Below the pieces are notes generated by a model, which was given only the letters and a program-made list of their open reading frames with translations, ran no database searches and was not told where the DNA came from. From positions 72,779-136,778 of the forward strand of contig QAKH01000048.1 in assembly GCA_003343885.1 (NCBI GenBank): a stretch of DNA of 64,000 bases. The letters run 5' to 3'. The position numbers and the translations under genes are program-made. This document shows, in pieces, positions 8,540 through 36,226 of this stretch (positions are counted from its first letter, which is position 1; every line of letters starts with the position of its first letter). Source of the stretch: Clostridiales bacterium (GTDB lineage Bacteria; Bacillota; Clostridia; Oscillospirales; CAG-382).

Positions 8540-8546
8540 ATACAGG

Positions 8547-13018: not shown

Positions 13019-13050
13019 GGCAGACAGTCTCAGACAACAGACTGCCCGCC
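13019..13050 (-). terminator. intrinsic terminator after the GH2 gene
   Basis: On the minus-strand RNA this is a 12-bp stem (two G-U pairs) with an 8-nt loop, followed by a U-rich stretch. The same hairpin is poorer on the plus strand. Confidence 0.5.
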
Positions 13051-13066
13051 GTTAGTAAAATATGAA

Positions 13067-16000
13067 TTACTGAATGTGTCCCGGCTTTATTATAATACCG
13101 CAGCGGAAATTCTTTTCGGTAAAGCGGTATTTTTCAAAAGTACGCGGTCCGCAGGAATTTGAACCTATGCCGGTCATTCTCATGTCGGCATATACGTATG
13201 TCTCCTTGTGCGGTACAAGCTCGTAATCATGCGCGGCTTTAGCAATATCCAAAGCGCTGAAATGCTGAGCGTTAAACGAAAACTCTTCGCTGTCATACAT
13301 TTTCATTATCTGGAGTCCGTGACCTGTGAGGTTTCCGACAAAGGCATACCTTGTATCACAGTGGGAAGAATTTTCCTGAGGTCTGATATAATGTTCAAAG
13401 TTGTCGGTTGCGGTGGTACGGAAATATCCTACCTTTGACTGATATTTATGATCGCTGTACGCTTCATAAGGTCCGCAGCCGAAATACTCCACTCTTTCGT
13501 TATCTTCCGGCATTACTATCTCAAGACCGAAGCGAGGAAGCTCATCGTAATTTCCGTCCTTTTCAACCTCAAACTCGAAGCTTATTTCTCCGTCAGAGGA
13601 AACAGTGATATACTGCTTTATTTTCATAACCGGCGCCTTTGCGGGAACGCTTAATGCAACATCCGCAAACAAAGTGACATACTCATCGTCAGCCTTATAC
13701 ATGCCGCAGTCATACACCTTTTGCTCTATGTGGTCAAGTCCCCAAGGCAGCCATGTTCCGTTAGCCATAGGACGGTCGTTGTCCGTCGGAGCACGCCAGA
13801 GATTAAAGTTTACCGGACGGTCAATCATTTCCTTACCGTCATGGACAATACGGACAATTTTACCGGAATTCTTGTCAAATATTACGCAAAGCTCAGCGCA
13901 TACAATTTCAATAAAACCGCCGTCTTCTGTATATTCAACCTTTGAGGGAAGTGATACAGTTTCATCAGGCTCATCAAAGGTTACACTGCCGAGTTCAAAC
14001 TGACACGAGCCCATCTCGAAACCTGCCTGATAGCAAGCAGTATCGGTATTGTAAATGAAGCGTACATTGAGGAAATACTCGCCGTCCTTGTCAAAGTCCG
14101 ACATATCGCACAGCTTATATTTTGCCGTACGGCCTGGTTTTACCGAAACGCCGGGTATTCTGCCGGAACAGATTATCTCTCCGTTGCACTCAACATTCCA
14201 CGCAAGGTCAACATCGGAAAGGCTCTCAAAGAAACGCCAGCTTTTAACAGAAATTTCTATATTATCGCTGTCGAGAAGATTTACTTCGACCGGCATATAT
14301 GCGTTTTTAATCGCACGCATACCGTTGCTGAGAGTTCTGTCTGGGTAAACAAGACCATCCACGCAGAAATTGCCGTCGTGAGGATATTCACCGAAGTCAC
14401 CGCCGTAAGTATAGCGCTTTTTACCGTCGGGACCTGTTATCTCTACCGAGTGGTCGCAAAATTCCCATACATTTCCGCCCATAAACTCGTCATGCGAACG
14501 TATAAGCTCAATATACTCACGTATTCCTCCGGGGCCGTTACCCATCGCGTGGAGGTATTCGCAGAGGTAGAACGGTTTCTTTTTGTCTTCGTCCTTGCTT
14601 GTGATGTAACCAAGACAACCGGCAGGGTCGGTATACATTTCGCTTCGGACATCCACAAGATCAGCGTGACCGGCCACGCACCGTTCACTCTCATAGTGAA
14701 TGTAGGCTTCCGGCATACGCGAAAGAATGTATTCACGCATGGCGTGCTGGTTTCTGCCGCAGCCGGATTCGTTGCCAAGCGACCACATAATGACGCAGCC
14801 TCTGTTTTTATCACGTTCAAACAGCTTCTTTGCTCTGTTTACGTACGCCTTTTCCCAAAGTGAATCCGATGAGAGTCCCGACCAATTGTTTACAACGCAC
14901 ATACCGTGGGTTTCAAGGTCAGCTTCATCTATCATATAGAATCCGTAGATATCGCAAAGCTCCATCATACGAGGATCATTCGGATAATGGGAAGTCCTTA
15001 TTGAATTTATGTTATTCTGCTTAAAGATTTTAAGATCTCTTACAAAATGGTCATACGGTGCGGTGTGCCCGAGAACCGGATGTGAATCATGGCGGTTAAC
15101 GCCTCTGATCTTTACTTTTTTACCGTTTATATAGAATATTTTTCCAACGATTTTTACCTGCTTTACGGCAATATTCTGGTAAATAACCTCGCCGCCGCAG
15201 TAAAAAAGAAGCTTATAGAGCTTAGGCGACTCGTCGTTCCAAAGCACAGGGTTTTGTATTTCAATGACTGTTTTATCTTTTACATACTCGCCCTCTGCTA
15301 TTATATCGTTATTGGGAGCAAGCAGCGTATACTCAGCTTTTGCCTTTCCCACAAAATCAAGTTCAAGGCAAAGTTCTGCTTTACCAAGGTCATCCGACAC
15401 ACTCTGCTTTACATATATATCACGTATATGATTTTTATCTCTTGCCAAAAGATATACTTCCCTGAATATACCCGAAAACCTGAACATATCCTGATCCTCG
15501 AGATAGCTTTGTGCATTCCATTTAACAACCAGAACGGCAATAATGTTTCTGCCTGCCTTTACGGCGCCTGAAACATCAAATTCGCTTGTGCAGTGGCTGA
15601 CTGTTGAATATCCAACAAATTTACCGTTAATCCAGACATAGTGGCATGAGTCAACGCCCTCAAAATTGAGATACACACTCTTTTCTGCAAATCCGTCTGA
15701 AAGATAGAAATCCCTTGTATAAACGGCGCACGGATTTTTATCCGGAATATGAGGCGGATCGACCGGGAAAGGATAATTTGTGTTAGTATACTGAGGTACG
15801 TCGTAACCTTTCGACAGTACGGTCTGCCAGTTACGCGGGACGGTGATAGTTTCTGTGGACTCGAATTCATCTTCAAAATACTCGTCCGTTGTGAAATCCT
15901 CGTCAAGTTCGTTTACGTTTTCATAATATCTGAAGTTCCATTCGCCGCAAAGCGTCTTAAAGTAAGGCGAGCGATTGCGGTCAAGCTTTGACGCGCTGAC

Positions 16001-19947: not shown

Positions 19948-22335
19948 ATGCAACAGGCAAAACAAAGTAAAAGGAAGCCAAATAAAACCCGTAACGTAAG
20001 TTTCATGTCAAAAACAGCTCAGCTCTTTTCAAAGGCAAGGATTTTTTCGTTTAACTCGGCAAGTGTAATTGCAAACGCCGTAAAGAAAACCGCCGCCGTC
20101 AAAGGTCTTGATCTTTCGGAAGTTCGTGATTATACTTTTGCTCTTGCAAAATCCATTCTCGGCTTTTTGCTCGGAATGGCTGCGCTTCCACAGGGTATAC
20201 GCCCTTTTGGTATTTCTCTGCTTTGCTCTATGTCAGACAGCAGAAGTGTTTTTTTTACATATATCGGCTGTGCGTTATCCTGTATTACTTACGGAGACAG
20301 CGCTCTTTCCTCATTCATAGTATATTTTATGCTTTTTGCCGCAAGAAAAGCGTTTACCGAGTCAAAATACGGGGAACAATTAAACGTACGTATACTCGAA
20401 AGCGCTGCCGCAAGCACGGCAATAGGTATAATACGTATAAGCACGTCCGCAGAGCATGCCGTATATTCTTACATAGCATTTCTCTGTCTTGCCTGCATTT
20501 CCTGTGCGTTCACCTATTTCTTCAGCATACTGTTCAACAAGGCGGCGATCTCCGCGGCGCGTATAAGCACAAAAAGCATTTGTTCCTATGCTCTTATGGG
20601 AGCGCTTGTCTGCTCTCTTTCCGGAGTAAATGTTTTGGGATTTGATCTTCAGCTCGTCGCGGCTTGTCTTATCACTCTTACCTACGCTGTGGCAAACGGA
20701 TTCCTTCACGCCGGCATTGTTGGATTTATTTGCGGAATTGCCTGCGCAAGTCCCATTGTTTCCGCATCACTCGGATTGAGCGGAATAATTGCCGCACTAA
20801 TGTTTTCAAAAAGTATTTTTGCCTCGCTCATATCGTTTGCCTGCGCTTTTCTGATATGCGGAGCGTACAGTGCAGATTTAGGGCACACAGTGACGCTCGT
20901 ACCGTCGGTGGCGTGCAGCTGCGTCCTGTTCTTCCCTGCCTGCGGATTTTTGCCGGAAGCCTTGAGGTTAAGCAAAGGAGCTCGTACAAAGTCAAGCGCG
21001 GTCGCAAAGAAGCAGGTACGCAAACAGCAAAAAGAACTTGCGGAGGCGTTTTTTTCCCTTTCGGAAATGTTTTCAAAGTTAGCGGAAAAGCAAAAATATC
21101 CGCTGATTGAGGATGTGGAACTTGCGGTGGACAAGGCTTTTTCCTCAACGTGCGGCAAATGTGCACTAAATGAGATGTGCTATGCAAAGAGAAAAACGGA
21201 CGTCAAACAACTCAAACAGAATTTATATTCGGTACTGTGTGCAAGGTCGGTGGTTCCGGAAGATTTCGGGGAGCATATGAGCGACAAATGCATACGTTTG
21301 CAAAATCTTTGCGACGAACTTAACAGCAGTTATTCCGGACTTTGTGTTGACTGCTCTAAAGACAACCGTACCGCACTTCTGTGCGCTCAATACTCCGGTA
21401 TGGCGCGGCTAATTCTTGACTCGGAAAAACGCAGCAACGAGGACACTGAACGAGACATTCAATTTGAAAAAGCCGTTTCAAGCGCTCTCTCGAAGGCTGA
21501 CATTCCGTTTTCAAACGTGTGCGTATTCTCTGACAGAGAAAAGCGCACGCACATAAGCGGCATAAGCATCGACAAGTTTCCTTTTGGTGCGGAAGAGTTT
21601 AAAAAATATATTTTTGCCTCTTGCGGAGTAAAAATAAGTCAGCCGGATTTTGACATATCCGAAAAAAGCGAAACTGTCTTACGTTTTAAGCGAATTCCTG
21701 TAATATCGGTTGAATATTCACAAGCCTGCGCATCCAAGAAAAACGAGGATATCAGCGGAGACACGGTTTCTTTTCTGCACCACGAAAACAATACTTTTCA
21801 TGCGCTTTTATGCGATGGTATGGGAAGTGGAATAGGCGCCGCGACTGCTTCTCGGATTTCTACCGTTTTCATGGAAAAACTGCTCGGAGCCGGCGTCAAA
21901 AAAGAAGTTGCCTTTGAACTGCTAAACAACGTACTTCTTTCCCAGAGCGGCGAATGCTTTTCGACGGTTGATTTATTTGAAGCTGATTTATTGACGGGAA
22001 GATGCATGTTTATAAAAGCGGGAGCGGCTCCCACTTACATTCTGAGAGATTCAAAGCTCTTTAAAATTTTTTCTGCAACTCCTCCCGTAGGTATACTCTC
22101 CTCTTTTTCCGCAGAAAGCACAAGGTTTGACATAGAACCGGACGACGTTATTATAATGCTGTCGGATGGTGTTGTGCAAAACGGTGAAGACAGCACCTGG
22201 CTTAGTGAAATTGTTAAAATAGACAAGCTAAACGACCCGTCTGTTCTCGCCGGCAAAATCTTGGAAAAATCCCAAAGTATTAACACACGTCCGGATGATA
22301 TGAGCGTTGCTGTTATCCGAGTCAAAAAAGCCTAA
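19948..22335 (+). CDS. spoIIE: stage II sporulation protein E (membrane PP2C phosphatase)
   Basis: 795 aa with ~10 N-terminal TM segments and a C-terminal PP2C domain (GDTVSF ... LCDGMGSG ... MLSDGV ... DDMSVAVIR). The exact start is uncertain (19948 or the ATG at 20005). Confidence 0.88.
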   Translation: MQQAKQSKRKPNKTRNVSFMSKTAQLFSKARIFSFNSASVIANAVKKTAAVKGLDLSEVRDYTFALAKSILGFLLGMAALPQGIRPFGISLLCSMSDSRSVFFTYIGCALSCITYGDSALSSFIVYFMLFAARKAFTESKYGEQLNVRILESAAASTAIGIIRISTSAEHAVYSYIAFLCLACISCAFTYFFSILFNKAAISAARISTKSICSYALMGALVCSLSGVNVLGFDLQLVAACLITLTYAVANGFLHAGIVGFICGIACASPIVSASLGLSGIIAALMFSKSIFASLISFACAFLICGAYSADLGHTVTLVPSVACSCVLFFPACGFLPEALRLSKGARTKSSAVAKKQVRKQQKELAEAFFSLSEMFSKLAEKQKYPLIEDVELAVDKAFSSTCGKCALNEMCYAKRKTDVKQLKQNLYSVLCARSVVPEDFGEHMSDKCIRLQNLCDELNSSYSGLCVDCSKDNRTALLCAQYSGMARLILDSEKRSNEDTERDIQFEKAVSSALSKADIPFSNVCVFSDREKRTHISGISIDKFPFGAEEFKKYIFASCGVKISQPDFDISEKSETVLRFKRIPVISVEYSQACASKKNEDISGDTVSFLHHENNTFHALLCDGMGSGIGAATASRISTVFMEKLLGAGVKKEVAFELLNNVLLSQSGECFSTVDLFEADLLTGRCMFIKAGAAPTYILRDSKLFKIFSATPPVGILSSFSAESTRFDIEPDDVIIMLSDGVVQNGEDSTWLSEIVKIDKLNDPSVLAGKILEKSQSINTRPDDMSVAVIRVKKA

Positions 22336-22387
22336 ACAATGTGCGTAAAAGCGTATGTCTGTACGCTTTAGCCTATAACTCATCCTA

Positions 22388-22445
22388 TAAAAGCCTTTTT
22401 TCCAAGTCAAGCTATTTGCCTGGGGAAAAAGGCTTTTTTACGTTT
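22388..22445 (+). terminator. intrinsic terminator after spoIIE
   Basis: AAAAGCCTTTTTTCC ... GGGGAAAAAGGCTTTT long stem followed by TTTA..TTTTAT. Confidence 0.65.
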
Positions 22446-22527
22446 TATCCTTTTTTAAGACACAATAGTACAATATAAGAAATATTTTTTCAAAAATAGC
22501 TATGAATTGTTAAATTTGAAAAAATAC

Positions 22528-22556
22528 TTGAAATTCATTACCTCGTGTGGTAAAAT
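22528..22556 (+). promoter_or_regulatory. sigma-A type promoter of the V-type ATPase operon
   Basis: TTGAAA (22528-22533), 17-nt spacer, TAAAAT (22551-22556). Confidence 0.55.
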
Positions 22557-22603
22557 ATCTCGAAAATATGAGTTACATATATTATATATAGTGTAAGGCA
22601 AAG

Positions 22604-22637
22604 AGGCTTTTATGTGTTCTGCATAAAGCCTATTTTT
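22604..22637 (+). terminator. terminator-like hairpin inside the V-ATPase operon leader
   Basis: AGGCTTTTATG / CATAAAGCCT stem (10 bp, one bulged T), 7-nt loop, then ATTTTTA. It lies between the predicted promoter and the first gene. Confidence 0.5.
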
Positions 22638-22679
22638 AAATCTTTGCGGGCTTTTTCCGCTTGGAAAGGTTGACTGATT

Positions 22680-22994
22680 TTGATAAACGATAATCTGCTT
22701 GAAATTATTAACGCCGACAAACGTGCCAGAGAGCGTATCTCTGATTCATCAAAGTTTGACGCACGCTCAAAACAAATGCTTGAAGAGGCTAAGGCTCGTC
22801 TTGAAGAAAAATACGATAAAGATGCTAAGCAAAAAATTCAAGCTTCCGCAAAAGAGCACGAAAAGCTGTTGGAGTTGACAGCTGAAACGTATGAAACCCG
22901 GTTAAGAGAAACAGAAAAAAATATAGAACAGCTTACAGAAAAGAAAAAAAACGAGTGGGTAAGCATGATAATACGCAGCGTTACTGAAATATGA
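22680..22994 (+). CDS. V/A-type ATPase peripheral-stalk small subunit (G/H-like coiled-coil protein)
   Basis: 104 aa with a TTG start 9 nt after GGAAAGG. Highly charged heptad-like sequence. It is the first gene of the ATPase operon. Confidence 0.5.
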   Translation: MINDNLLEIINADKRARERISDSSKFDARSKQMLEEAKARLEEKYDKDAKQKIQASAKEHEKLLELTAETYETRLRETEKNIEQLTEKKKNEWVSMIIRSVTEI

Positions 22995-23039
22995 CAATCG
23001 TTATGCTTTGGATCGCAAACACAAAAGGAGGAAGAATGC

Positions 23040-24083
23040 ATGGCTAACATCAGTGCGTTATCTTCTAAGGCTTTGTATGCAAAAGCCAAGGCTTGCTACG
23101 CTTCCCATATGACACCCGACGACTACGTTCGCTTGAGTTCGCTGTCAAGTCTTGAAGAGTTTGTTTCTCATTTAAAGAACAAAACCCAGTACTCCGCCGC
23201 TTTTGAAGGGCTGGGAGGTTCCGGGCACCTCACAAGGCAGCATGTGGAAGCAATTATAAGGCGAATGTTTTTTCTAAGGCTTGAAAAACTGGTAAGATAC
23301 GCAAATCTCTGTGACAATTACGTGAGCGATTATTTTTTGGCAAGACACGAGTGTGAATGTATAGTGCGCCGGCTGAGACAGTCCGGAGAATACACGCTTG
23401 ACAGTTACTTTGTTTATATGCCGGAGGGCTTCTTTACATCTACCGGTTTTGACATATACGCACTTGAACATGCAAGGTCGCAGGAAGAACTGCTTGAGGT
23501 GCTCCACGGCACTGATTACGGCAAGCTTTTGGACAATATTTTAAAGAGCGGTGCCGGAAGTTTGATTGCGGAAAATGTAATTTACGGATATTTATTTGAG
23601 CATAGTGCCAAAGGCTTTAAAAAGAAGCTTGAGAAAAAAGAATACGAGGAAATTGAGCGTATTCTCGCGATGTTTTCGGATATGATTACCATCAACAATC
23701 TTTACCGCATAAAAAAGTTCTACCCGGACTGTGCGGATAAGCTTTTGATTCATGTTTATACCTCAAATCTCACGCGTATTTCCGACATACAGCTTGACAA
23801 AATGAAAAAAGCGAAAGACGTAACTGAATTTACGGCTCAACTCGAAAAAACTTGCTATAAACAGGCCGCGACACTTTTACGTGGCAGCGAGTCTGCTTTA
23901 TTTACAAAACAATACATTTACAATGAATGTAAGCGGCTCTTTACAATAAGCGACAAAGCCGCAGTCAGTGCGCTTTGCTATTCGTATCTAATAACGAACG
24001 AAGCATCAAACCTCATTGTCCTTACTGAAGCGTTAAGCGCCGGTGTAAGTCAAGAGCGCATGTTGAAATTACTTGTTACATGA
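23040..24083 (+). CDS. ntpC: V-type ATP synthase subunit C (V0 d-type)
   Basis: 347 aa, all-helical, with the typical size and position. AAAGGAGG RBS. Confidence 0.75.
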   Translation: MANISALSSKALYAKAKACYASHMTPDDYVRLSSLSSLEEFVSHLKNKTQYSAAFEGLGGSGHLTRQHVEAIIRRMFFLRLEKLVRYANLCDNYVSDYFLARHECECIVRRLRQSGEYTLDSYFVYMPEGFFTSTGFDIYALEHARSQEELLEVLHGTDYGKLLDNILKSGAGSLIAENVIYGYLFEHSAKGFKKKLEKKEYEEIERILAMFSDMITINNLYRIKKFYPDCADKLLIHVYTSNLTRISDIQLDKMKKAKDVTEFTAQLEKTCYKQAATLLRGSESALFTKQYIYNECKRLFTISDKAAVSALCYSYLITNEASNLIVLTEALSAGVSQERMLKLLVT

Positions 24084-24149
24084 CGGATTGATCTGCAAAG
24101 TTTTACTTGCAAAATTTCCGTAGGTACGGAAAGGAAGGATATATTTCAG

Positions 24150-26087
24150 ATGGCAATAGAAAAAATGAACGTTGCCAGGATCAGCGGCAATCTCGAAATG
24201 CTGGACAAAACCCTTGACGAGATATGTTCCGCGGGAGTCTTTCAGCCGGAATCGGCAGAGAGTTTTTATTCTGCCGGCATGGGGCTTATACCCTTTGACG
24301 ATGAAAACATCGCGTCCCAAAGAATGGCTGAACTCGAAGCACTTGCGGCTAACGCCGGCATTCATCTTCGTGTCCGCGGAAAATACGATGACGAAGGAGA
24401 CGCAGATAAAGACGAGACGTTTTTCGGCGAACTTTCACAAAAGTTAAAAAGTTATGCCGAAGAAAAAAACGCCTTGACAGAACAGATAGAGTTGTGCAAC
24501 AACGCTATTGCAAACTACAATCACTTCAAGGAACTTGACGTCGACCTCGGTGAAATCAACGCTTGCCGGTACGTTAAACCGAGATTCGGTCATCTTCCGA
24601 AAAAAGCGTATGAAAAAATTTCGGAATACTCGAAAGACCACCCGTACATCAGCTTTTTTCCCTGTTCCTTTGACAATGACGAATGCTGGGGCGTTTATTT
24701 CGCTCCGAAAGAAAAGGTATCTGAGGTTGACGGTGTGTTTGCCTCTCTGCTATTCCAGAAAATCATTCGTTCGGACGTCACCGGAACGATAAAAGAACTG
24801 ATAAGCGGACTTGAAGCAAATGTTGAGATCGTAAAAAAACAGATTGAAAAGCTTGACGCTGACGCGGCTAAGATGTGCAAGGACGAGGAAGAACACATGA
24901 GTCTTTACTACTCAAAGCTTTCCCGTGACTGCGCAAAGCACGACATAAAGTCACTTGCTTTTCACAACAAGGAGTATTTCTTTATCGCCGGCTGGGTACC
25001 TGAAAAAAATGCCGCTGAATTTGAAAAACGCCTCGAAAAGCTTGGCGGAGACGTCACGGCAGAGATAAGTCCTCCGGATGAGACTCTTAAGGTCAAGCCT
25101 CCGGTACGCATGACAGGATTTGCAAAAATCCTGCGGCACATTGTCGAACCATACACGTTCTACGTCGACATGTACGGAACGCCGTCCTACAATGATTTAG
25201 ACATCACGGCTTTTGTTGCCGTAACTTACACAGTTCTTTTCGGAATGATGTTCGGCGACATGGGGCAAGGGTTGGTATTAAGCATTGTCGGTGCGCTCAT
25301 GTGGAAGATAAAGCGAATGGGGCTTGGTCGTATCTTGGTTCCCTGCGGAATATCTTCGATGTTTTTCGGCTTTATTTTCGGCTCGGTATTCGGATACGAA
25401 CATTTGCTTGATCCTGTTTACAAGGCTATCGGCTGGAAAGGCAAACCGATCGAGGTATTCGAGAGCGTAAACTTAGTGCTTTTGTTAGCAATTGCGATAG
25501 GCGTTGCGCTTGTTATATGCGCTATCCTTATAAATATTGTCGGATGTATAAAAAGACGGTGCTTTGCTGAGGCACTGCTTAGCCAGAACGGCTTATGCGG
25601 ATTGCTTCTTTATCTTTGCGGAGCAAATTTAGCTTCCGGCTTTATGGGCGGCTTTTCTCCCATTAACACAGCCGTTTGCGGAATTGTCATTGCGGTATGC
25701 GCCGTAATACTTGTCATTAAGGAACCGCTCATTGAGGGATTTGATCACCATCACTTTGAAAAGCCTGAAAGCATGGTCGATTTCCTGCTTCAGAATATTT
25801 TCGAGCTTGTTGAATATATATTGTCGTACATGAGCAACACCGTTTCGTTCTTGCGAGTCGGAGCGTTTGTACTTGTTCATGCCGGTATGATGATGGTTGT
25901 ATTCTCTCTTGCCGGGGAAAGCGAAAACATAATAGTTATTATTTTGGGAAATGTACTTGTAATTGCGCTTGAGGGACTTCTTACGGGAATTCAGGCACTC
26001 AGACTTGAATACTACGAAATGTTCAGCCGTTTCTATATCGGCGACGGCCGCAAGTTTACACCTGTTAAAATGAAGAAAAAATCTTAA
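24150..26087 (+). CDS. ntpI: V-type ATP synthase subunit I (a-type stator)
   Basis: 645 aa. Soluble N-terminal half plus ~7 TM segments, with a conserved C-terminal block (SFLRVGAFVLVH, LRLEYYEMFSRFY). Confidence 0.88.
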   Translation: MAIEKMNVARISGNLEMLDKTLDEICSAGVFQPESAESFYSAGMGLIPFDDENIASQRMAELEALAANAGIHLRVRGKYDDEGDADKDETFFGELSQKLKSYAEEKNALTEQIELCNNAIANYNHFKELDVDLGEINACRYVKPRFGHLPKKAYEKISEYSKDHPYISFFPCSFDNDECWGVYFAPKEKVSEVDGVFASLLFQKIIRSDVTGTIKELISGLEANVEIVKKQIEKLDADAAKMCKDEEEHMSLYYSKLSRDCAKHDIKSLAFHNKEYFFIAGWVPEKNAAEFEKRLEKLGGDVTAEISPPDETLKVKPPVRMTGFAKILRHIVEPYTFYVDMYGTPSYNDLDITAFVAVTYTVLFGMMFGDMGQGLVLSIVGALMWKIKRMGLGRILVPCGISSMFFGFIFGSVFGYEHLLDPVYKAIGWKGKPIEVFESVNLVLLLAIAIGVALVICAILINIVGCIKRRCFAEALLSQNGLCGLLLYLCGANLASGFMGGFSPINTAVCGIVIAVCAVILVIKEPLIEGFDHHHFEKPESMVDFLLQNIFELVEYILSYMSNTVSFLRVGAFVLVHAGMMMVVFSLAGESENIIVIILGNVLVIALEGLLTGIQALRLEYYEMFSRFYIGDGRKFTPVKMKKKS

Positions 26088-26141
26088 GGATACAATTAAA
26101 ACTCAATTTTTAAACCATTTGACTATGAAAGGAATTTTATC

Positions 26142-26627
26142 ATGATTACATTTATTCTTTGCACACTTTTGGTTCTTATTCCCGCACTTCTCCTCTTTTC
26201 CGCCGTTGTTTGCTTTAAGAGAATGTCTTCCGGAACTGCTCCGAGAAAGGCTGCGCGTTTTAATATCGGCGTTTTCGCTTGTCTTATAGTACTTGTAGCT
26301 CTCACTTCAGTTTCAGTATTTGCTGCAGGTGAGGATGCAGACACTGCCGGAACAAATGAACAAGCTCAGGCTGCCGATGAAGCCGTTGAAACCGAAACAG
26401 CGTCATCTGATTCATCAAAGGGTATGGGACTTCTTGCAGCCGGTCTTGTTACCGGTCTTGCAGGCATAGGCGGCGGTATCGCCGTTGCAGCCGGTGCGCC
26501 TGCCGCGATTGCTGCGACCAGCGAAGATCCGAAGTCTTTCGGTAAATCTATCATTTTCGTTGCTCTTGGTGAATCTATAGCTCTTTACGGCGTCGTTATC
26601 GCAATCCTTATCCTCCAAAAGGTTTAA
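26142..26627 (+). CDS. ntpK: V-type ATP synthase proteolipid (K/c) with non-canonical ~94-aa N-terminal extension
   Basis: The C-terminal 67 aa form a single c-hairpin (GLAGIGGGIAVAAG ... ALGESIALYGVVIAILIL). Upstream are two hydrophobic segments and an acidic linker. GAAAGGA RBS precedes 26142. Alternative starts at 26223 or 26424. Confidence 0.7.
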   Translation: MITFILCTLLVLIPALLLFSAVVCFKRMSSGTAPRKAARFNIGVFACLIVLVALTSVSVFAAGEDADTAGTNEQAQAADEAVETETASSDSSKGMGLLAAGLVTGLAGIGGGIAVAAGAPAAIAATSEDPKSFGKSIIFVALGESIALYGVVIAILILQKV

Positions 26628-26651
26628 AACTACTGAAAGGTCAGATCCGAG

Positions 26652-26957
26652 ATGAAATTTTTTCTGATTACCGATGATGCTGACACCTGTGTCGGAATGC
26701 GCCTTGCCGGCATTAACTCAGTTCTTGTCCATGACGCGCAAAAAGCAGAAAAGGCACTGGATGATGCAGTTAGTGACAATGACACAGGCATGATACTTAT
26801 TACGGCAAAGGTCAAAAGTTTTTGTTCCGAGAAAGTACGTAAAATAGCCGCAGGAAATCGTCCGATTATTGTGGAAATTCCGGATTCTTCAAACGCGGCA
26901 AGCTCTTCCGGTGCGATAAGCGATTATATCCGTTCAACTATCGGTATCAGTGTTTGA
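26652..26957 (+). CDS. V-type ATP synthase subunit F
   Basis: 101 aa. MKFFLI.D.DT..G.RLAGI N-terminus is typical of subunit F. Confidence 0.8.
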   Translation: MKFFLITDDADTCVGMRLAGINSVLVHDAQKAEKALDDAVSDNDTGMILITAKVKSFCSEKVRKIAAGNRPIIVEIPDSSNAASSSGAISDYIRSTIGISV

Positions 26958-26971
26958 GGAGGACATAACTT

Positions 26972-27571
26972 TTGGATAAAAACATATATGACAGCACGAG
27001 TTTGATTATTGAAAGCATTGAAAATCAGTCGCGTGCCGAGCAGAAGAATATAGAGGAGCTCTCCGAAAAGTTATACAAGGAAAAAGCGGCGGCTCTCGAA
27101 AAAGAAATATCAGACAAGTATGACGCATTGGTGGAATATGAGCTTGAAAAACAGCGCATAGACGCAAACAAAAAGGCATCTGCTCTTGAGTCTGAAAACA
27201 AGGCGGCTCTCGCTGAAATGAGGAAAAAAGTCACCGACGAGGTTTTTGCCGGCGCTTTTGAAGGCATAAAGCGTTTTGTTCAGACCGACGCATACGCCGA
27301 GTTTCTTGAAAAAAGCGCTTCTTCAATGAGCGGACTGTATGACGGAAAGGCTGAAATACTTATCCGAAAAGCAGACGACGGATTCAAGCCGCTTATACTG
27401 AAAGCTTTCGGAAAGCCTGCGGATTTTGTTTACGATGATTCCATTGTTTTGGGCGGTATAAAAGTGCATTTTGCAGACAAAGCTGTTATTGCCGACGACT
27501 GCCTCGACTCAAGACTTGAAGCCCAAAAGAAAAACTTTATCAACACAAGCGGCTTAGGATTCAAGAGGTGA
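26972..27571 (+). CDS. V-type ATP synthase subunit E
   Basis: 199 aa with a TTG start. Long N-terminal charged helix and a globular C-terminus (GGIKV ... D.SLD.RLE). Confidence 0.75.
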   Translation: MDKNIYDSTSLIIESIENQSRAEQKNIEELSEKLYKEKAAALEKEISDKYDALVEYELEKQRIDANKKASALESENKAALAEMRKKVTDEVFAGAFEGIKRFVQTDAYAEFLEKSASSMSGLYDGKAEILIRKADDGFKPLILKAFGKPADFVYDDSIVLGGIKVHFADKAVIADDCLDSRLEAQKKNFINTSGLGFKR

Positions 27572-27576
27572 TTTAA

Positions 27577-29370
27577 TTGGCTGAAAATAATAATAAAACA
27601 AGCGCACTGATATACGGTGTAAACGGCCCGATTGTTACAATAAAGGGCAAAACCGATTTCAGCATGCTCGAAATGGTGTATGTCGGTCAAAAGCGCCTCA
27701 TTGGTGAAGTAATCCGAATTGAACGTGATTTTACGACTATACAGGTATACGAAGAAACAACCTCGCTTAGAGCCGGTGAGCCGGTTATCGGCACGGGCGC
27801 CTCGTTAAGCGTAACGCTCGGCCCGGGAATAATGGGCAACATTTTTGACGGTATCCAACGTCCTCTGCGTGTTCTTGAGGGCGAATTCGGCGCGTTTATC
27901 GGACGTGGTGCAAATGTGGCATCACTTGACGAAACAAAAAAGTGGAATGTGACATTTTGCATTAAGCCAGGAGATACACTAAGCGGCGGTCAGGTCTTTG
28001 CTACGCTTCCCGAAACGGATATAATAACTCACAAGGTTATGTTGTCCCCGTTACTTTCCGGAAAAATAACCTGGGTTGCTCCTAACGGTGAGTACACGGT
28101 AAAGGACGAAATTGCGAAGCTTGAGGATGCAAGCGGTAATATTCATACACTGACTCTTGAACAGCGTTGGCCGATTCGTACACCAAGACCTATCTATTCA
28201 AGACTTCCCTCAAACACTCCGCTTATTACCGGACAGCGTATTATCGACTCCCTCTTCCCCATCGCTAAAGGCGGTGCGGCGGCTATTCCGGGCGGATTCG
28301 GTACCGGTAAAACAACAACGCAGCATCAGCTTGCGAAGTGGTGTGACGCTGACATAATCATTTATGTCGGATGCGGCGAGCGAGGCAACGAAATGACTCA
28401 GGTTCTTACTGAATTTTCCGAGCTTACCGACCCGAAATCCGGAAAGCCTCTGCTTGACAGGACGGTGCTTATCGCCAATACTTCAAACATGCCTGTGGCG
28501 GCTCGTGAGGCTTCAATATACACAGGTATCACTCTTGCCGAGTATTACAGAGATATGGGATATGACACGGCAATAATGGCGGATTCTACTTCACGTTGGG
28601 CTGAGGCACTGCGTGAGATATCCGGACGTCTTGAAGAAATGCCGGCTGACGAAGGTTTCCCGGCTTATCTGCTGTCAAGGCTTGCGGAGTTTTACGAACG
28701 TTCCGGACGTGTTGAAACTCTTTCCGGCAAGCAAGGTTCTGTAAGCATTATAGGGGCAGTCAGCCCGCAGGGTTCTGACTTTTCCGAGCCGGTTACTCAG
28801 AACACGAAGCGTTTTATAAGATGCTTCTGGGCGCTTGATAAAAATCTGGCGTACGCAAGACATTTTCCGGCAATTAACTGGAACGACTCATACAGCGAAT
28901 ATGTAAACGATTTTTCCGGCTGGTACCGTGAGAACGTAGGTGCGGATTTTCTTTCATGCCGTGAGGAATTATGCAGTATTCTTTCAGAAGAAAACAAGCT
29001 CATGGAAATTGTAAAGTTAATCGGTGCCGATGTGCTTCCTGATGATCAGAAATTGGTTATTGAAGTTGCTCACGTCATACGCAGCGGCTTTTTACAGCAG
29101 GAATATTTCAGCAAAAACGACGCTTTTGTTCCTATGAAAAAACAGCTTGCTATGATGTCCGTAATTCTTAAATATTATCACAAGATGCGTGACGCCGTTG
29201 CTTTGCAGATTCCTATTTCAAAGCTTCTCGCTTTGGGAATTTCCGAAAAACTTATCGGCATGAAGCACGATGTACCCGAAAACGATTTGTCGCTGATTGA
29301 CAAATACGCTTCCGAAATAGACACCGAACTGAATGCGCTTATTAAATCAAGAGGAGGAGACACCATATGA
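27577..29370 (+). CDS. ntpA: V-type ATP synthase catalytic subunit A
   Basis: 597 aa with a TTG start 6 nt after AGAGGTG. Walker A GGFGTGKT, the non-homologous region and [14 protein letters not shown] are present. The size is normal, so no intein. Confidence 0.95.
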
Positions 29371-30734
29371 TAATACGTCATTTGAAAACCGAACGTATAA
29401 ACGGTTCTCTTATCACTCTTGACGGTGTTAAAGAGGCTTCTTTCGACGAGGTTGCTACGCTTTACCTGTCGGACGGTACAAAGAGGACGGGCAGAGTCGT
29501 AAAAATTGAGGGTGAAACCGTTACTTTGCAGGTTTTTGAAGGTTCAAGAGGGATTTCCGCTTTCAACACAAGTACGGTTTTTGAAGGAAGTCCTATTGAG
29601 CTTGCTCTGTCTCCTGAGATACTCGGAAGAGTTTTTGACGGGCTTGGCAGACCGATTGACAGTTTAGGAGAAATTTATCCGCACGTTGTAAGAGATGTAA
29701 ACGGCGCTCCGATAAATCCTGTTTCACGTGAATATCCGAGAAACTTCATTCAGACCGGAATATCGTCAATAGACGCGCTTGCTACGCTTGTTCGCGGTCA
29801 AAAGCTGCCGATATTTTCCGGATACGGAATGAAGCACAACGAGCTTGCCGCTCAGATTGCAAAACAGTCTACCATTGCTGACAACGATGATTTTGCTATT
29901 GTTTTTGCCGCAATGGGCGTAAAAAATGACGTTGCCCAATATTTCCGCAGTCAATTTGAAGACGCAAACGCGAACAGCAAGGTTGTTATGTTTCTCAATT
30001 TATCAAACGACCCGATTATTGAAAGAATAATCACTCCGAGATGTGCTCTGACCGCTGCGGAATATTTGGCATTTGATCTCGGCATGAATATTCTTGTAAT
30101 TTTAACCGACATGACGGCTTACGCCGAGGCATTGCGTGAATTCAGTTCTTCAAAGGGTGACATACCCGGAAGAAAAGGTTTTCCGGGCTATCTGTACTCA
30201 GACTTTGCTTCACTGTATGAAAGAGCCGGTATGCTTGCAGGCAAAAAAGGCTCGGTTACACAGATCCCGATACTTACCATGCCTAACGATGACATTACCC
30301 ACCCGATTCCTGACCTTACCGGCTATATAACCGAAGGACAGATAGTTCTTGACAGAGAGCTTGACGCAAAAGGTATCTATCCGCCGGTAAACGTTCTGCC
30401 GAGCCTGTCGAGACTTATGAAGGACGGTATCGGAAAAGGCTTTACAAGAGAGGACCACGCTCCTCTTGCTAATCAGCTTATGGCATCGTATTCAAAAGTC
30501 CAGGAAGCAAGAGCTCTTGCCTCAGTTATAGGAGAAGACGAATTGTCTCCGGAAGATAAGCTTTTAATGGAATTCGGCAAAGCTTTTGAAACTCAGTTTA
30601 TAAATCAATCTTTCACGGAAAACCGTACACTTGACCAAACGCTTGATTTAGGCTGGAAGCTAATTTCCATGCTGCCAAAGAAAATGCTTGACAGAGTTGA
30701 CGGCAAGATTCTTGACCGTTACTACCGCGGCTAA
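29367..30734 (+). CDS. ntpB: V-type ATP synthase subunit B
   Basis: 455 aa, overlapping ntpA by 4 nt. Typical B-subunit blocks are present ([20 protein letters not shown]). Confidence 0.95.
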
Positions 30735-30756
30735 GATTGAAAGGAGTAATTTACAC

Positions 30757-31575
30757 ATGACAGGATTTGCCATGCGTATATTCATCGGCGTACTGCTCGG
30801 ACTTGGCGCCGTTCTTCCCGGTATTTCCGGAGGAGTTCTTTGCGTTATGTTCGGGCTTTACAAGCCGATAATCGAGTTTTTGTCTCATCCGAAAAAATCT
30901 TTTAAGAAGTATGCCGGTTTGCTGCTTCCCGTATTTATTGGGTTAGTACTCGGTTTTGTCTTAGTTGCAAGACTTTTGGCGTTTCTTCTGGAAAGATACG
31001 AAAATATATCCGTCTGCCTGTTTGTCGGACTTATTATAGGCATGTTCCCCTCCCTGCTTAAGGAAGCCGGGAAAAACGGGCGAAACAAATTCTCGGTTAT
31101 TTCATTTATTGCCGCTTTTTTAATTATTCTCACACTTCTCATAGGACTTCATATGATGTCCGTAAAATTAGAGCCAAGCTTTATATGGTACGTTTTCTGC
31201 GGTCTATGCCTTGCTGTGAGTATAATTGTCCCCGGAATGAGCTTTTCCACACTCCTTATGCCGTTAGGATTATATACTCCGTTTGTTGACGGAATAGGAC
31301 GTCTTAACTTTTCAGTAATAATACCTGCGTTTTTAGGAGCGATAGTGACGCTTATACTGTTTTCAAAGCTTGTAAACATGCTCTTTGAAAAGCATTACTC
31401 GGTCGCCTTTCACGCTGTAGCCGGAGTTGTAGCTGCTGCCACTCTTGTTATTGTGCCGTTTCCAAGTTTTGTTTCAGGCGGAATCGTAAGCTTTGCCTCA
31501 AACACTGCGGCTTTGGTTTTGGGCGCGGTTGTTGCGTACGCTTTATCGAAGCTTGACAACGGAGAAAGAGAATAA
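30757..31575 (+). CDS. DUF368 family polytopic membrane protein (PopT-type candidate undecaprenyl-phosphate translocase)
   Basis: Start taken at ATG 30757 (AAGGAG at 30741); the track ORF starts at 30688, inside ntpB. The signature PGISGGVL...G.Y and its internal repeat PGMSFSTLLMPLGLY are present. ~8 TM. Confidence 0.75.
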   Translation: MTGFAMRIFIGVLLGLGAVLPGISGGVLCVMFGLYKPIIEFLSHPKKSFKKYAGLLLPVFIGLVLGFVLVARLLAFLLERYENISVCLFVGLIIGMFPSLLKEAGKNGRNKFSVISFIAAFLIILTLLIGLHMMSVKLEPSFIWYVFCGLCLAVSIIVPGMSFSTLLMPLGLYTPFVDGIGRLNFSVIIPAFLGAIVTLILFSKLVNMLFEKHYSVAFHAVAGVVAAATLVIVPFPSFVSGGIVSFASNTAALVLGAVVAYALSKLDNGERE

Positions 31576-31664
31576 CATTTTTATAAACAAACTATATTCG
31601 ACAATTTCTGAATTACAGTGAATACATATTTACCGATTTAATTACAATTATTGGAGTTAATAAA

Positions 31665-32288
31665 ATGGCTGGAATTGTTCCGACAAAAAGCAACCTTATG
31701 GCTGCCCAAAAGTCGCTTAAACTTGCCAAGCTCGGATATGAGCTTATGGACAGAAAGAAAAATATACTGATCAAGGATTTATTATCTCTGACCGACAAGG
31801 CAAAACAAATTCGTAAAGAAACCGACGAGGCGTACAAAAAGGCTTATAACAGCCTTCAAAATGCAGAAATGACGCTTGGACGGTGCGGAACGTTTGCAAT
31901 GAGCATTCCCTTTGACGAAAGCCTTGACATATCTTCAAGGAGCGATATGGGAGTGGAGTTGGCTAAAATAAGCCATTCCGAGTCTGAGCTTTATCCGTAT
32001 TTCGGTTTTGACTGCACAAACTCATATCTTGACGAAGCGTATATTTATTTCAACGAAGCGAAAAACAAAACTGTTGCTCTGGCTGAAATTGAGACTGACG
32101 TATGCCGTCTTGCTGATGCGATAAGGAAAACGCAGAAAAGAGCAAACGCTTTATCAAATGTACAAATTCCGGCGCTGACTGAAAAAATTAAAGCTATTAC
32201 CGAGGCTTTGGATGAAAAAGAACGTGAAGAATTTTCTCGTATGAAGGTCATCAAAACAGCGGCAGAAAAAAACTCTCTTTCGCAATAA
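31665..32288 (+). CDS. ntpD: V-type ATP synthase subunit D
   Basis: 207 aa. VPTKSNLM..Q..L..A..G..L...K N-terminus and coiled-coil rotor-stalk pattern. Confidence 0.9.
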   Translation: MAGIVPTKSNLMAAQKSLKLAKLGYELMDRKKNILIKDLLSLTDKAKQIRKETDEAYKKAYNSLQNAEMTLGRCGTFAMSIPFDESLDISSRSDMGVELAKISHSESELYPYFGFDCTNSYLDEAYIYFNEAKNKTVALAEIETDVCRLADAIRKTQKRANALSNVQIPALTEKIKAITEALDEKEREEFSRMKVIKTAAEKNSLSQ

Positions 32289-32310
32289 TTTATAATTTTA
32301 TCTGCAAATA

Positions 32311-32350
32311 AATATCCGGCAAGATGTTATCTCTTGCCGGATATTTTTCT
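32311..32350. terminator. bidirectional intrinsic terminator between the V-ATPase operon and the convergent nine-gene locus
   Basis: Perfect 14-bp stem AATATCCGGCAAGA / TCTTGCCGGATATT, 7-nt loop, then TTTTCT on the plus strand and a U-rich stretch on the minus strand. Confidence 0.8.
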
Positions 32351-33181
32351 CTACCTATCCTTGCATACTTTTACATTAGATTTTTCACAGGCAACATATC
32401 CGTCTTTTATGGAAAAAAAAGCGCATCTCTCATCAGTGTGGGAATTTTCAGTCTTAATATCCGCTTTTTTTAGTGCTTTTGCACGGATTAGCATATACTC
32501 GTTATTTCCGTCGTTATAATAACAATCGTACCCATAAAACGCTCGTAAAACAAGCTCGGCTTTTTCATATTCCGTATCCGGATATATTGTGTACATACTC
32601 TTGTCCGGCATTTCAAGATATTCCGCCGCACCGCTTTGCGGTACGGCATTTTTATATGCCTCATCAAAATTTTCTATCAGATAGCTAAGCATTTCCGGCA
32701 GGAGCGCGTATACTTTTTGCATAAAAGTTTCAAGATTTTCCTTCTCTTCGAGTACAAAAGACCGCTGAACGACTATATCTCCGGTGTCAAAGCCTTCGGC
32801 AATTTTATGAATTGTAACTCCGCTTTCACGTTCTCTTCTCAAAATCGCTATGGGCATCGGCCATCCGCCTCTTCCCTTGGGAAGAAGAGACGGGTGAATA
32901 TTAAGCGTAGGTATATCAGGGAAAACAGGAATCTTATAGTAATACCCGGCGCAAAAAACTGCCTCACAGCCTTTTTCTTTAAGCCGCACAAAATCGGCAA
33001 TTGTTATTCTGTCAAGCTTATATGGAACGCCGGCATTTTGTGCGATACTGATTACCTTACTGTTGAATTCAGTTAAATTATCAGTCCGGCAGGTAAAAAG
33101 CTCTAACAGTTCACAGCCTTCGGACAAAAGTATTTCGAGTGCAGGAGCAAACAAATCAATCCCGATATAGGCAATTTTCAA
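32351..33181 (-). CDS. Fmt-type formyltransferase family protein (short, non-canonical C-terminal domain)
   Basis: 276 aa with a TTG start overlapping the upstream stop (TTGA). Catalytic motifs NIHPSLLPKGRGGWP and FDTGDIV are present. The N-terminal MKIAYIG beta-strand matches the Fmt fold start. Confidence 0.75.
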   Translation of the reverse strand: MKIAYIGIDLFAPALEILLSEGCELLELFTCRTDNLTEFNSKVISIAQNAGVPYKLDRITIADFVRLKEKGCEAVFCAGYYYKIPVFPDIPTLNIHPSLLPKGRGGWPMPIAILRRERESGVTIHKIAEGFDTGDIVVQRSFVLEEKENLETFMQKVYALLPEMLSYLIENFDEAYKNAVPQSGAAEYLEMPDKSMYTIYPDTEYEKAELVLRAFYGYDCYYNDGNNEYMLIRAKALKKADIKTENSHTDERCAFFSIKDGYVACEKSNVKVCKDR

Positions 33182-35145
33182 AGCACATCATCCCTTCGCT
33201 TTTCTATGACAAATACCGATGTATACGGCTTCATAATCAGCTCATTTTTCTTTTCTATGACGTTTCCGCTGCTGTTGCACCAAATTTCGAAATCAGAACC
33301 GTCAGAGAGCTTAATCTTTAAAGAATTATCGCTGTCACCGGTATTTATAATATAGTAAATCCGAACGCCGTCTCTTTCATACGGACTTACAAAGATATTT
33401 GCTTTATTATCTGACTCAATTTCTATTCCGTATGCAATCTTTTCGGCAAGAATTTCTGCCGGATTTTCACAAATATCAACCGAGAGCAAGTCGGGCTTTG
33501 AGCCTGCGTACAGTACACATCCTCCGGCAAGTTGAAAATCACTTATTTTTTTCTCGAGCAAATCATCAACATATTTTACTCCCGGCATTACGACACAGCT
33601 GATTTCCAAACCATTACATACAAGGCAATTATTAACTATATCCGCATCTTTTATCCACTCTGCATCGATAATCGTAAAATCAAGCTGTTTTTTACAAATA
33701 TCCGTATACAGTTTGAACATGGTCTGTTCCGCAAATGTTTCGGTATCTGTAATTTGGGCGCCGGAATTTATACCGATACAATCGGGATGGTAATATCCTT
33801 GGAACGTTTCAATAGGATAATACATGCCAATTTTACCGCACCATCTGCAACTTCTGAGAACATATGCAGCTCTTGCAAAATAATCGGCATAATACTTGAA
33901 GCTGCCTTGAAGTCTTTCCGGTGAGAGATAAGAGTTGATATGGTTTATTCCCGACATGAAAATCAGATCCATTGTTCCTATTTCCTGTTCGAGAGTATAG
34001 TCCTGATTCCCGTTATACTGTACAAGCGGACATATCTCAACCATGACCTTTTCTGTTTTACCCGTCATTCTTGCCGCACTTCCAACGTATTTTGCAGCCA
34101 TAGCAAACTGGAACGACTTATTGTATTTGAAAGCTTCAGGATCGCCTGTAAGCATGTCAACACCGGGATAGTCAAAAGTTTTAAGACACTTCATGAGATT
34201 TCCATACAAGGGCACATGCATGGAAATACATTCCTCAAGCAGGCAGTGTCCGGAGAATTTGACTGAATGTGTGCGGCACCATACTTGAATTTGCTTGAAA
34301 AACGCGTCATTTACCATTTCAGAAACGGTCTGCCAAAACATGAGTTTACTTTTTAAAAATCTGTCTGATTTATCAAACAACTCATGTATTATCTTAAAAA
34401 AGCTGACACCGTGCATTTGATAAAAGACTTCCGGCAATTTTTCCTGCCATGGCAAAAAAGCACGTTCCATATTTTTGTAACAATTAACATACGCACTCAT
34501 AAGGCTTGGCTCATCTGTAAAAACTGCCTCAAACTCGGAAAAATTACTAAGACTTTCAAAATATTTATCGTATGTGCACTTAATAAACGCATCTACTGCG
34601 TCCTTATCAAGTAAGTTCGGATATCTCCTGGGACCCCAGCCGCAATTCTGTGCGTGACTGCCTTCAAAAACTGATTTTACTGCAAAGCACAAGTCTGCTC
34701 CGTTGACGGATTTTTCAGAGAAATTCACCGGTGAACCGTCTTTTTTGCAGGCATAAATAACTTTATCATATTCATCGTCAAGCTTAAAATCAGTGCCGTT
34801 TAATTCAAACACTGTAAAGCCCTTGGCTTCAAATTCCGGATGTTCTTTTAAGGTAAGTCCGTCAGCGCTTCCACTCGGATATCCTTTTTCGTCATACATC
34901 CAGACGCCAATATTATTTTTCTTGCACACATCTATATTTTTATCAAGTGTAACAAAATCCTCATCGCACTGCAAATATTTAGCTTTATCAGTTTTATCGT
35001 TATGCCAATTTACATTTGTGACTATGCCGCCGAAACCCAAGTCAGAAATGTCCACGAGGTATTTTTCCATATCTTCCGGCAATGCATGAGACAATCTATA
35101 TATTCTATATTCATTTGGCGGGTTTAGAAAAATATTTTTATTCAT
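33178..35145 (-). CDS. cytoplasmic glycoside-hydrolase-like protein, family not assignable by eye
   Basis: Start moved to ATG 35145 (GGAGG upstream). The N-terminal NPPNEYR ... GFGGIVTNV ... WMYDEKGYPSG ... FTDEPS pattern recalls uncharacterised TIM-barrel glycosidases. No signal peptide. Confidence 0.5.
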   Translation of the reverse strand: MNKNIFLNPPNEYRIYRLSHALPEDMEKYLVDISDLGFGGIVTNVNWHNDKTDKAKYLQCDEDFVTLDKNIDVCKKNNIGVWMYDEKGYPSGSADGLTLKEHPEFEAKGFTVFELNGTDFKLDDEYDKVIYACKKDGSPVNFSEKSVNGADLCFAVKSVFEGSHAQNCGWGPRRYPNLLDKDAVDAFIKCTYDKYFESLSNFSEFEAVFTDEPSLMSAYVNCYKNMERAFLPWQEKLPEVFYQMHGVSFFKIIHELFDKSDRFLKSKLMFWQTVSEMVNDAFFKQIQVWCRTHSVKFSGHCLLEECISMHVPLYGNLMKCLKTFDYPGVDMLTGDPEAFKYNKSFQFAMAAKYVGSAARMTGKTEKVMVEICPLVQYNGNQDYTLEQEIGTMDLIFMSGINHINSYLSPERLQGSFKYYADYFARAAYVLRSCRWCGKIGMYYPIETFQGYYHPDCIGINSGAQITDTETFAEQTMFKLYTDICKKQLDFTIIDAEWIKDADIVNNCLVCNGLEISCVVMPGVKYVDDLLEKKISDFQLAGGCVLYAGSKPDLLSVDICENPAEILAEKIAYGIEIESDNKANIFVSPYERDGVRIYYIINTGDSDNSLKIKLSDGSDFEIWCNSSGNVIEKKNELIMKPYTSVFVIEKRRDDVL

Positions 35146-35160
35146 ACAAAACCTCCGCAA

Positions 35161-35199
35161 AAATAACAAAGCGGCAAGCTCCCAACCGGAAGCTGCCGC
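35161..35199 (-). terminator. intra-operon terminator/attenuator-like hairpin
   Basis: Minus-strand RNA: GCGGCAGCUUCC-GGUU-GGGAGCU(U)UGCCGC (12 bp, one bulge) followed by UUUGUUAUUUUU, immediately before the RBS of the GH-like gene. Confidence 0.55.
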
Positions 35200-35212
35200 T
35201 TTTGCATTATTA

Positions 35213-36226
35213 TTAACCAACGATACCTGAACGCTCGATACCTTCGACGAAAGATCTCTGTGCGAACAAGAAGATTATGAACAGCGGCAAAATTACCAAA
35301 AGTCCACTGGTATTTGTTATTGCGGACTCCCACAAAGTTGTTGCCGCATAATCGATCTTCAAGCTCGGCGGAATTTTTGTTACTATGTTCGTAAGCAACG
35401 GTTCCGCGCTCGCTGTAAAGAAAGGAGATGCCGTATAGAATGTATCCGTCCACTGCCATGAGAATGAGAACATAAACACGGTTGTCATCATAGGTACTGA
35501 CAGCGGCATAATTATACGGAAGAATGTTTCAAACACGCCGGTTCCGTCAATATACGCTGCTTCTTCAAGCTCATCCGGCACGCCTTTATAGAACTGTCTG
35601 AATATGAATATATACAAACCGTTCTTAAATGCAAGACCTGTAAGCGAAAGTATGTACAGAGGTATTTCCGTATTTAACAAGCTTATTGTTCCGCCTGTAA
35701 ACAGCTTTATAATTCCCAACACGTCAAAGTAACGGAATTTCATAAACATTGAAAGCAACAATGTATCATGAGGAATCAAAAGTGTGATAATTACCGCAAT
35801 AAACAGGATGTTTCTGCCCTTAAACTTAAACTTAGCAAATCCATAACCGATTATTGCGCATATAAGCGTCTGGAACAATCCGCACAGTATTGATATTCTC
35901 GCAGTATTGAACAGTGCCTGCCAATACTTATTCTCTTTTATTATGAACACCCACTGGTCAAGCGTCGGATTTTTGGAAATCAGTTTTACCGTCTGATCCG
36001 TAAAGTCCGTTGTGCTCATAAATGAAGCGGCTATTTTTGTTATAAAAGGATAAAGGATAATATAGGAAATACCTACAAGGAGAACATATCTAAGTATAGC
36101 CCAAATTACCTTGCCGAGAAAGTTAAGCGAAAACACTTTTTGCTTAAATCTTTCAGCTGCACCAACTTTTCCTTCAAAGTTTATGCGCATTTCTTTTCTC
36201 GAAATTTTTCTTGTCTGCTGATCCAT
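35213..36226 (-). CDS. ABC transporter permease (CUT1 MalG/LplC-like) with ~45-aa N-terminal cytoplasmic extension
   Basis: Start moved to ATG 36226 (AAAGGAGG upstream). EAA loop EEAAYIDGTGVFETFFRIIMPL is present. Confidence 0.8.
   Translation of the reverse strand: MDQQTRKISRKEMRINFEGKVGAAERFKQKVFSLNFLGKVIWAILRYVLLVGISYIILYPFITKIAASFMSTTDFTDQTVKLISKNPTLDQWVFIIKENKYWQALFNTARISILCGLFQTLICAIIGYGFAKFKFKGRNILFIAVIITLLIPHDTLLLSMFMKFRYFDVLGIIKLFTGGTISLLNTEIPLYILSLTGLAFKNGLYIFIFRQFYKGVPDELEEAAYIDGTGVFETFFRIIMPLSVPMMTTVFMFSFSWQWTDTFYTASPFFTASAEPLLTNIVTKIPPSLKIDYAATTLWESAITNTSGLLVILPLFIIFLFAQRSFVEGIERSGIVG

Follow-up and report, generated by a model that had tools for sequence, protein, structure and literature searches.

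A DUF368/PopT-family gene lodged between ntpB and ntpD in a V-type ATPase operon of one uncultured gut genus

Membrane proteins of the DUF368 family are undecaprenyl-phosphate (Und-P) translocases, according to the two founding studies of the family (PMC9876793; preprint 10.1101/2022.02.03.479048). PopT homologues from five distant bacteria are reported to complement in Bacillus subtilis (preprint 10.1101/2022.02.03.479048), so that the translocase function appears to be conserved across the family. How these proteins are energized is a matter of dispute. Sit et al. report that DUF368 matters most under alkaline conditions with a low proton-motive force (PMF), and they speculate on the use of a sodium gradient or of some other non-proton gradient (PMC9876793). 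By contrast, Roney and Rudner favour energy-independent scrambling in their account (preprint 10.1101/2022.02.03.479048). In such a dispute, a conserved linkage between a DUF368 gene and the genes of an ion pump would be a clue. The published DUF368 neighbourhoods are archaeal N-glycosylation (aglB) clusters, whereas the neighbourhood described here is a V-type ATPase operon. No paper on a linkage between DUF368 and V-type ATPase genes came out of our search of the literature, supplementary tables of the two founding studies aside.

The closest precedent is found in Enterococcus hirae. There, ntpJ, coding for the K+ transporter KtrB, is a gene for a membrane transporter that is not a subunit of the enzyme, and it forms the last gene of a V-type ATPase operon. 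It is described as polycistronic with the ATPase genes, on the basis of a Northern blot, as co-expressed with them when Na+ is high or the pH alkaline, and as functionally independent of the ATPase (PMC12604602). This linkage, too, is lineage-specific: in E. faecalis OG1RF, about 1 Mbp is reported to separate ntpJ from the cluster (PMC12604602). The activity of the enterococcal V-type Na+-ATPase is itself tied to alkaline conditions in published accounts (PMC9945522; PMC12604602). The gene that we consider here is likewise that of a non-subunit membrane transporter placed in a V-type ATPase operon. The two cases differ in position, two core subunit genes (B and D) flanking our gene whereas ntpJ closes its operon; in cargo, a putative lipid carrier in place of K+; and in the nature of the evidence, co-transcription being deduced from sequence in our case.

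The window, by which we mean the whole stretch of 64,000 nucleotides that was analysed, belongs to an assembly of 2.75 Mb in 118 contigs, 91% complete. The DUF368 open reading frame (protein P0001, 272 aa) occupies positions 30757-31575 of its plus strand, from an ATG at 30757 to a TAA at 31575, and it is the ninth among ten frames of the same strand. The stop of ntpB falls at 30734, leaving a gap of 22 nt before the ATG, and ntpD starts at 31665, 89 nt after the DUF368 stop; the range initially annotated, 30735-31664, corresponds to the gene with both its spacers. The first spacer (30735-30756, plus strand) holds a ribosome binding site, GAAAGGAG, 10 nt 5' of the ATG, and is unstructured, with a minimum free energy of 0 kcal/mol and a z-score of +2.06. 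The second (31576-31664, plus strand) is AT-rich, with a GGAG before ntpD, and has a z-score of +0.41, 126 of 200 shuffled sequences folding at least equally well. Neither gap thus folds better than shuffled sequence. The frame, the two gaps, the ribosome binding site proper to the gene and the lack of a hairpin on either side had all been described in the initial annotation, and the coordinates agree with it.

The operon that harbours this gene lies entirely on the plus strand. A consensus scan places a promoter-like site (TTGAAA, 17 nt, TAAAAT, with a TG) at 22528-22556, which is a candidate operon promoter only. The operon opens with a frame of 104 aa (22680-22994) that has a TTG start and no match in Pfam or NCBIfam. 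The upstream V-type ATPase genes (23040-29370), recognized by Pfam PF01992, PF01496, PF00137, PF01990, PF00006 and others, code for subunits C/d (23040-24083), I (24150-26087), K or c (26142-26627) and F (26652-26957), then comes a frame of 199 aa in the place of subunit E (26972-27571), without a match in Pfam or NCBIfam, and subunit A (27577-29370; NCBIfam NF003220, 843 bits for a cut-off of 470). Subunit B, 455 aa, is encoded by ntpB (29367-30734; PF00006, E 2.1e-75; NF003235, 695.8 bits for a cut-off of 349), and subunit D, 207 aa, by ntpD, the last gene of the operon (31665-32288; PF01813, E 7.8e-49; TIGR00309, 115.9 bits for a cut-off of 72.25). Behind it, a hairpin with a stem of 15 bp and a U-rich tail (32310-32346, listed without strand) is the likely operon terminator, with -24.1 kcal/mol, a z-score of -7.07 and none of 200 shuffles folding as well; it sits between the convergent ntpD and a gene at 32351-33181 on the minus strand.

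The frame assigned to the c/K subunit displays an oddity of its own. It is 161 aa long, and only residues about 77-158 match the K-subunit models, which have some 100 positions. Its first 95 residues comprise two hydrophobic stretches and an acidic linker of low complexity. A start at M94 would leave 334 nt non-coding after ntpI. The N-terminal part could be an unusual extension or a separate small frame.

Between the candidate promoter and the terminator, the DUF368 gene has no signal of its own, which is the arrangement expected of a passenger transporter. In neither of its gaps did the consensus scan find a site resembling a promoter or a terminator, and no Rfam match was present in window 22000-33000 at E up to 1. 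Co-transcription of the gene with those of the ATPase is well supported by this anatomy, because the gaps are short in eight genomes, because both are free of hairpins and because a strong terminator stands behind ntpD.

The protein is a genuine member of its family. Two copies of the DUF368 signature were noticed at the outset and they are indeed there, LPGISGG...FGLYKP at residues 20-37 and VPGMSFS...LGLYTP at residues 158-175. An HMM search had been set beforehand as the test of membership, and it yields 154.9 bits for PF04018 (cut-off 26, E 3.6e-45). The match covers residues 14-240 and profile positions 1-236 of 246, and a scan of the whole genome agrees with it. PF04018, described as VCA0040-like and 'undecaprenyl phosphate translocase-like', is the sole Pfam family matched; no homology to any V-ATPase subunit was found. 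An internal repeat is seen when one half of the protein is aligned with the other (E 4e-8), and all six positions that are invariant across an alignment of 75 family members, P21, G22, S24, P159, G160 and G223, are kept. An AlphaFold2 model built on this 75-sequence alignment (pLDDT 94.0, pTM 0.88) predicts the same order in both halves, a helix, the loop of the PGxS motif, two short helices, then long helices.

The family profile, the duplicated PGxS motif and the internal repeat are shared with PopT of Staphylococcus aureus (SAOUHSC_00846) and with VCA0040 of Vibrio cholerae. The predicted polytopic fold, with short helices after the motif loops, may correspond to the two-fold symmetry and re-entrant loops of a published AlphaFold-based description. 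The kinship is nevertheless distant, as the NCBI PopT equivalog models NF052563 and NF052564 give 83.6 and 74.9 bits, below their cut-off of 400. By the NCBI rule, the protein is a member of the family, a distant relative of the characterized proteins and not their equivalog, and its activity is putative. A search among solved structures gave no sequence relative (0 matches), and Foldseek returned no significant fold match, the best being ZIP transporters and BacA at E 0.19-0.5. Since the invariant positions of the 75-sequence alignment are kept, it is a reasonable inference that the protein is an Und-P translocase. The window's genome has this one DUF368 gene and, besides, one gene with a DedA/VTT domain.

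An insertion unique to one strain was among the findings that, according to the initial annotation, would speak against it. The insertion is not unique. The window comes from an uncultured Oscillospiraceae-like gut genus, and 60 relatives were compared. An orthologue of the DUF368 gene is present in 7 of the 12 other genomes of the genus, at 58-67% identity and with every frame intact. With the window's own genome, this makes eight species-level genomes where the order B-DUF368-D is seen, that is, 8/8 of the genus genomes bearing this type of operon, and the survey of related genomes met it nowhere else. In the remaining five genomes (68-95% complete), both this operon type and a match to PF04018 are lacking, and four of these five carry a DedA gene. 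Operon and DUF368 gene are present or absent together, since eight genomes have both and five have neither. A scan of metagenomes with a single protein retrieved three further loci, all with the order A-B-DUF368-D at 65-67% identity; they probably come from species that the count of genus genomes includes already, and thus are not independent. A scan of genome contigs produced nine loci. Six have the arrangement of the genus and may overlap with genomes already counted; the other three, outside the genus (43-60% identity), lie elsewhere, 0/3 with an ATPase neighbour.

In the seven other genus genomes, the flanking genes are 84-87% (ntpB) and 71-73% (ntpD) identical to those of the window, the spacer before the DUF368 gene ranges from 2 to 89 nt and that behind it from 21 to 43 nt. 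In two genomes the DUF368 start codon comes 2-3 nt past the ntpB stop. A ribosome binding site precedes ntpD in seven of the eight genomes, the match in G006 being merely AAGGAAGGAA. The gene is under purifying selection, with a pairwise dN/dS of 0.05-0.22 where dS is not saturated; as a case in point, the copies of G012 and G010 differ by a dN of 0.032 for a dS of 0.294. All copies of the genus form one clade (SH-aLRT 99) on a stem branch of 0.14, and their lengths, 263-272 aa with the starts chosen, match those of the sister clade.

There are no direct or inverted repeats bracketing the gene, only short chance matches. Its GC content (0.433) and GC3 (0.421) do not stand out from the operon, where GC3 ranges from 0.35 to 0.50, nor from the window. 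The clade to which it belongs is sister to a taxonomically mixed clade. A recent transfer of the gene was considered and rejected, GC and GC3 being those of the operon; the tree neither requires nor excludes transfer. As the gene has no bracketing repeats, an operon-like composition and a mixed sister clade, we infer a single insertion event between ntpB and ntpD, which would have taken place in an ancestral member of the genus.

Outside the genus, V-type ATPase operons behave as the initial annotation had it, going from A to B to D without interruption. In 22 of 22 ntpD loci of other genera, 12 of them type-1 loci, ntpB is directly followed by ntpD. Conversely, the 20 DUF368 loci that the relatives have outside the genus are all without an ATPase neighbour within 1.5 kb. 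The family was sampled through 164 genomes, 38 having a DUF368 match at E 1e-40 or better; 0/18 further DUF368 loci had an ATPase neighbour, and 0/30 other DUF368 loci of these 164 genomes showed the order B-DUF368-D. For the order, 401 sampled genomes yielded close homologues (E 1e-60 or better) in 16 genomes other than that of the window, and 0/16 of these stand beside ATPase genes. More generally, no recurrent presence in V-ATPase operons was seen across lineages, with 0/57 regions and 0/13 loci having ATPase neighbours.

The closest homologues outside the genus have neighbours that are unrelated to one another, among which a sodium:solute symporter with Spo0A, an ABC ATPase with MatE, an HTH regulator with a diacylglycerol kinase, and TrkA. 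A gene with a TrkA domain, a regulator of K+ uptake, adjoins the DUF368 gene in two genera of the family besides this one (L073:779-1465 and L079:2332-3708); with two cases, this adjacency may be due to chance. The close homologues of the order (loci L153-L165 and L011-L013; 44-59% identity) are found in 16 of 400 other genomes. Because they are rare yet scattered over nine families, this suggests that the subclade moved horizontally among gut Clostridia.

The picture that fits these observations best, to which we give a probability of about 0.7, is that of an ordinary DUF368/PopT translocase, inserted once, read through together with the ATPase genes and working independently of them. The gene would have entered the ntpB-ntpD junction a single time, in one of the two V-type ATPase operons and in the ancestor of a species group within the genus, and would have been kept there under purifying selection. 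Transcription would start at the operon promoter, pass through the gene and stop at the terminator behind ntpD. Since the gene brings no signals for transcription with it, the protein would be made whenever this ATPase is made. In the membrane, it would then work on its own, an independence to which the precedent of ntpJ and comparative genomics both point. Retention at the B-D junction, down to an NtpD identity of 71%, could reflect selection for the linkage itself and not mere tolerance. Sharing the regulation of the ATPase might also be useful to the translocase. This is plausible because the expression of the enterococcal V-ATPase and the importance of DUF368 in V. cholerae are both tied to alkaline, high-sodium and low-PMF conditions, though we hold such a benefit to be rather doubtful.

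Of what had been proposed initially, membership in DUF368 and the position within the operon stand; the further ideas that the translocase is energized by the ATPase, or that it has a role related to this enzyme, find no support. Neither is indicated, because the linkage exists in no other lineage sampled, because the two genes do not co-occur in excess and because the invariant positions are kept. An energetic coupling deserves to be spelled out nevertheless. The translocase would be driven by, or tuned to, the Na+ or H+ gradient of the co-expressed V-ATPase, and the operon would be retained because it supplies power for carrier recycling at times of low PMF. The alkaline regime of the enterococcal enzyme, as reported in PMC9945522 and PMC12604602, speaks for it, as does a linkage kept in all eight genomes under purifying selection. 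A comparison within one class, with flanks of 1.5-3 kb, makes it unlikely. Among 399 genomes scored, 116 have a match to PF04018 (130 places) and 250 have NtpD; outside the window's genome, none of 129 DUF368 places was found with an ATPase neighbour, among the NtpD matches listed.

This count has three components. Forty-eight of the 129 places are in 42 genomes without an NtpD match, and 23 are in 21 genomes where every listed NtpD match is on a different contig or separated by 147 kb or more. The 58 others (57 regions, with 3 kb on each side) gave no tblastn match to nine operon proteins besides DUF368; these regions were fetched because 150 of 347 NtpD places were listed, and the tally was partly read by hand from tables. 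According to the same hand tally of 399 genomes, DUF368 and NtpD occur together in 74 of the 116 DUF368 genomes for 72.7 expected, hence no excess among the matches listed, while 42 of the 116 do without any NtpD match. A single origin, and the absence of ATPase genes beside the 16 homologues of the order, argue in the same direction, as does the energy-independent scrambling proposed by Roney and Rudner in the preprint. Furthermore, an ion gradient is delocalized, so that using it does not require the genes to be linked.

The c subunits may add to this. The genome has a second V-type ATPase operon on another contig (C85, about 6100-14200; L147), with an NtpD only 30% identical to that of the window. 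No F-type c subunit was found in the 91%-complete assembly, V-type c subunits only. It is the c subunit of the C85 operon that resembles NtpK of E. hirae, as a double hairpin with PGTQG and VETYA motifs, against a single hairpin in the window operon, where a V takes the place of the Thermus Q in an alignment with the Thermus subunit. Such a comparison bears on ion specificity only through the residues presumed to bind Na+. Coupling of the DUF368 protein to the ATPase, energetic or physical, is without support.

The position might also be devoid of regulatory meaning, the gene being a neutral passenger transcribed mainly from an unrecognized promoter at the end of ntpB. A promoter could lie inside the 3' part of that gene. 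The consensus scan was limited to sigma-70-type sites, a weak site with 9 of 12 positions lies inside ntpB (30066-30094), and the spacer before the DUF368 gene varies widely among genomes. Several facts render this explanation quite improbable. A similar weak site (31129-31157) turns up further on, and promoter-like sites across the region are at chance level, with 25 found for 18.8 +/- 4.2 expected. In two genomes of the genus, the DUF368 start nearly touches the ntpB stop. Finally, as there is no terminator before ntpD, a transcript of that kind would still enter this gene. The last explanation, that the protein has become a partner of the V-ATPase in the membrane, serving assembly, control of ion leaks or anchoring, and is no longer mainly a translocase, has its position between two core subunit genes in eight of eight genomes as sole support, and we find it most improbable in view of the invariant family positions all kept, a short stem branch and a low dN/dS without a sign of shift, lengths equal to those of the sister clade, the lack of homology to ATPase subunits, and an orthologous ATPase that works without DUF368 in the other lineages examined (the 12 type-1 loci of 22).

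What, then, does the linkage tell us? Having, in the samples compared, a single origin and being confined to one genus, it speaks for co-expression and for no general functional tie. What is new is a member of DUF368 in a lineage-specific operon position; the kind of position is already known from ntpJ, and we have here a second example of a V-ATPase operon with a transporter gene as passenger. This calls for caution in inferring function from a single embedded gene. It is a long shot that the B-DUF368-D operon points to an ion-coupled DUF368 protein, with Und-P recycling powered or gated in this genus by the gradient of the V-ATPase. If it did, ion coupling would provide a genetic handle on whether PopT acts as an energized flippase or as a passive scramblase. 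In any event the genus, with eight species having the operon-plus-DUF368 unit and five without it, is a natural system for testing the co-regulation of carrier recycling with an ion pump.

The borders of the operon show two further features. At its upstream end, window 22600-22680 (plus strand) contains two hairpins, the first followed by a run of U, between the promoter-like site and the first operon frame (z -1.49); they could serve to terminate transcription of the SpoIIE gene upstream (19948-22335), or could be part of a leader. At the other end, a frame of 680 aa on the minus strand (33178-35220), without a Pfam match, stands beside two genes for ABC permeases of the sugar type; its resemblance to an alpha-L-rhamnosidase model is faint (25.6 bits for a cut-off of 1300, E 2.9e-6).
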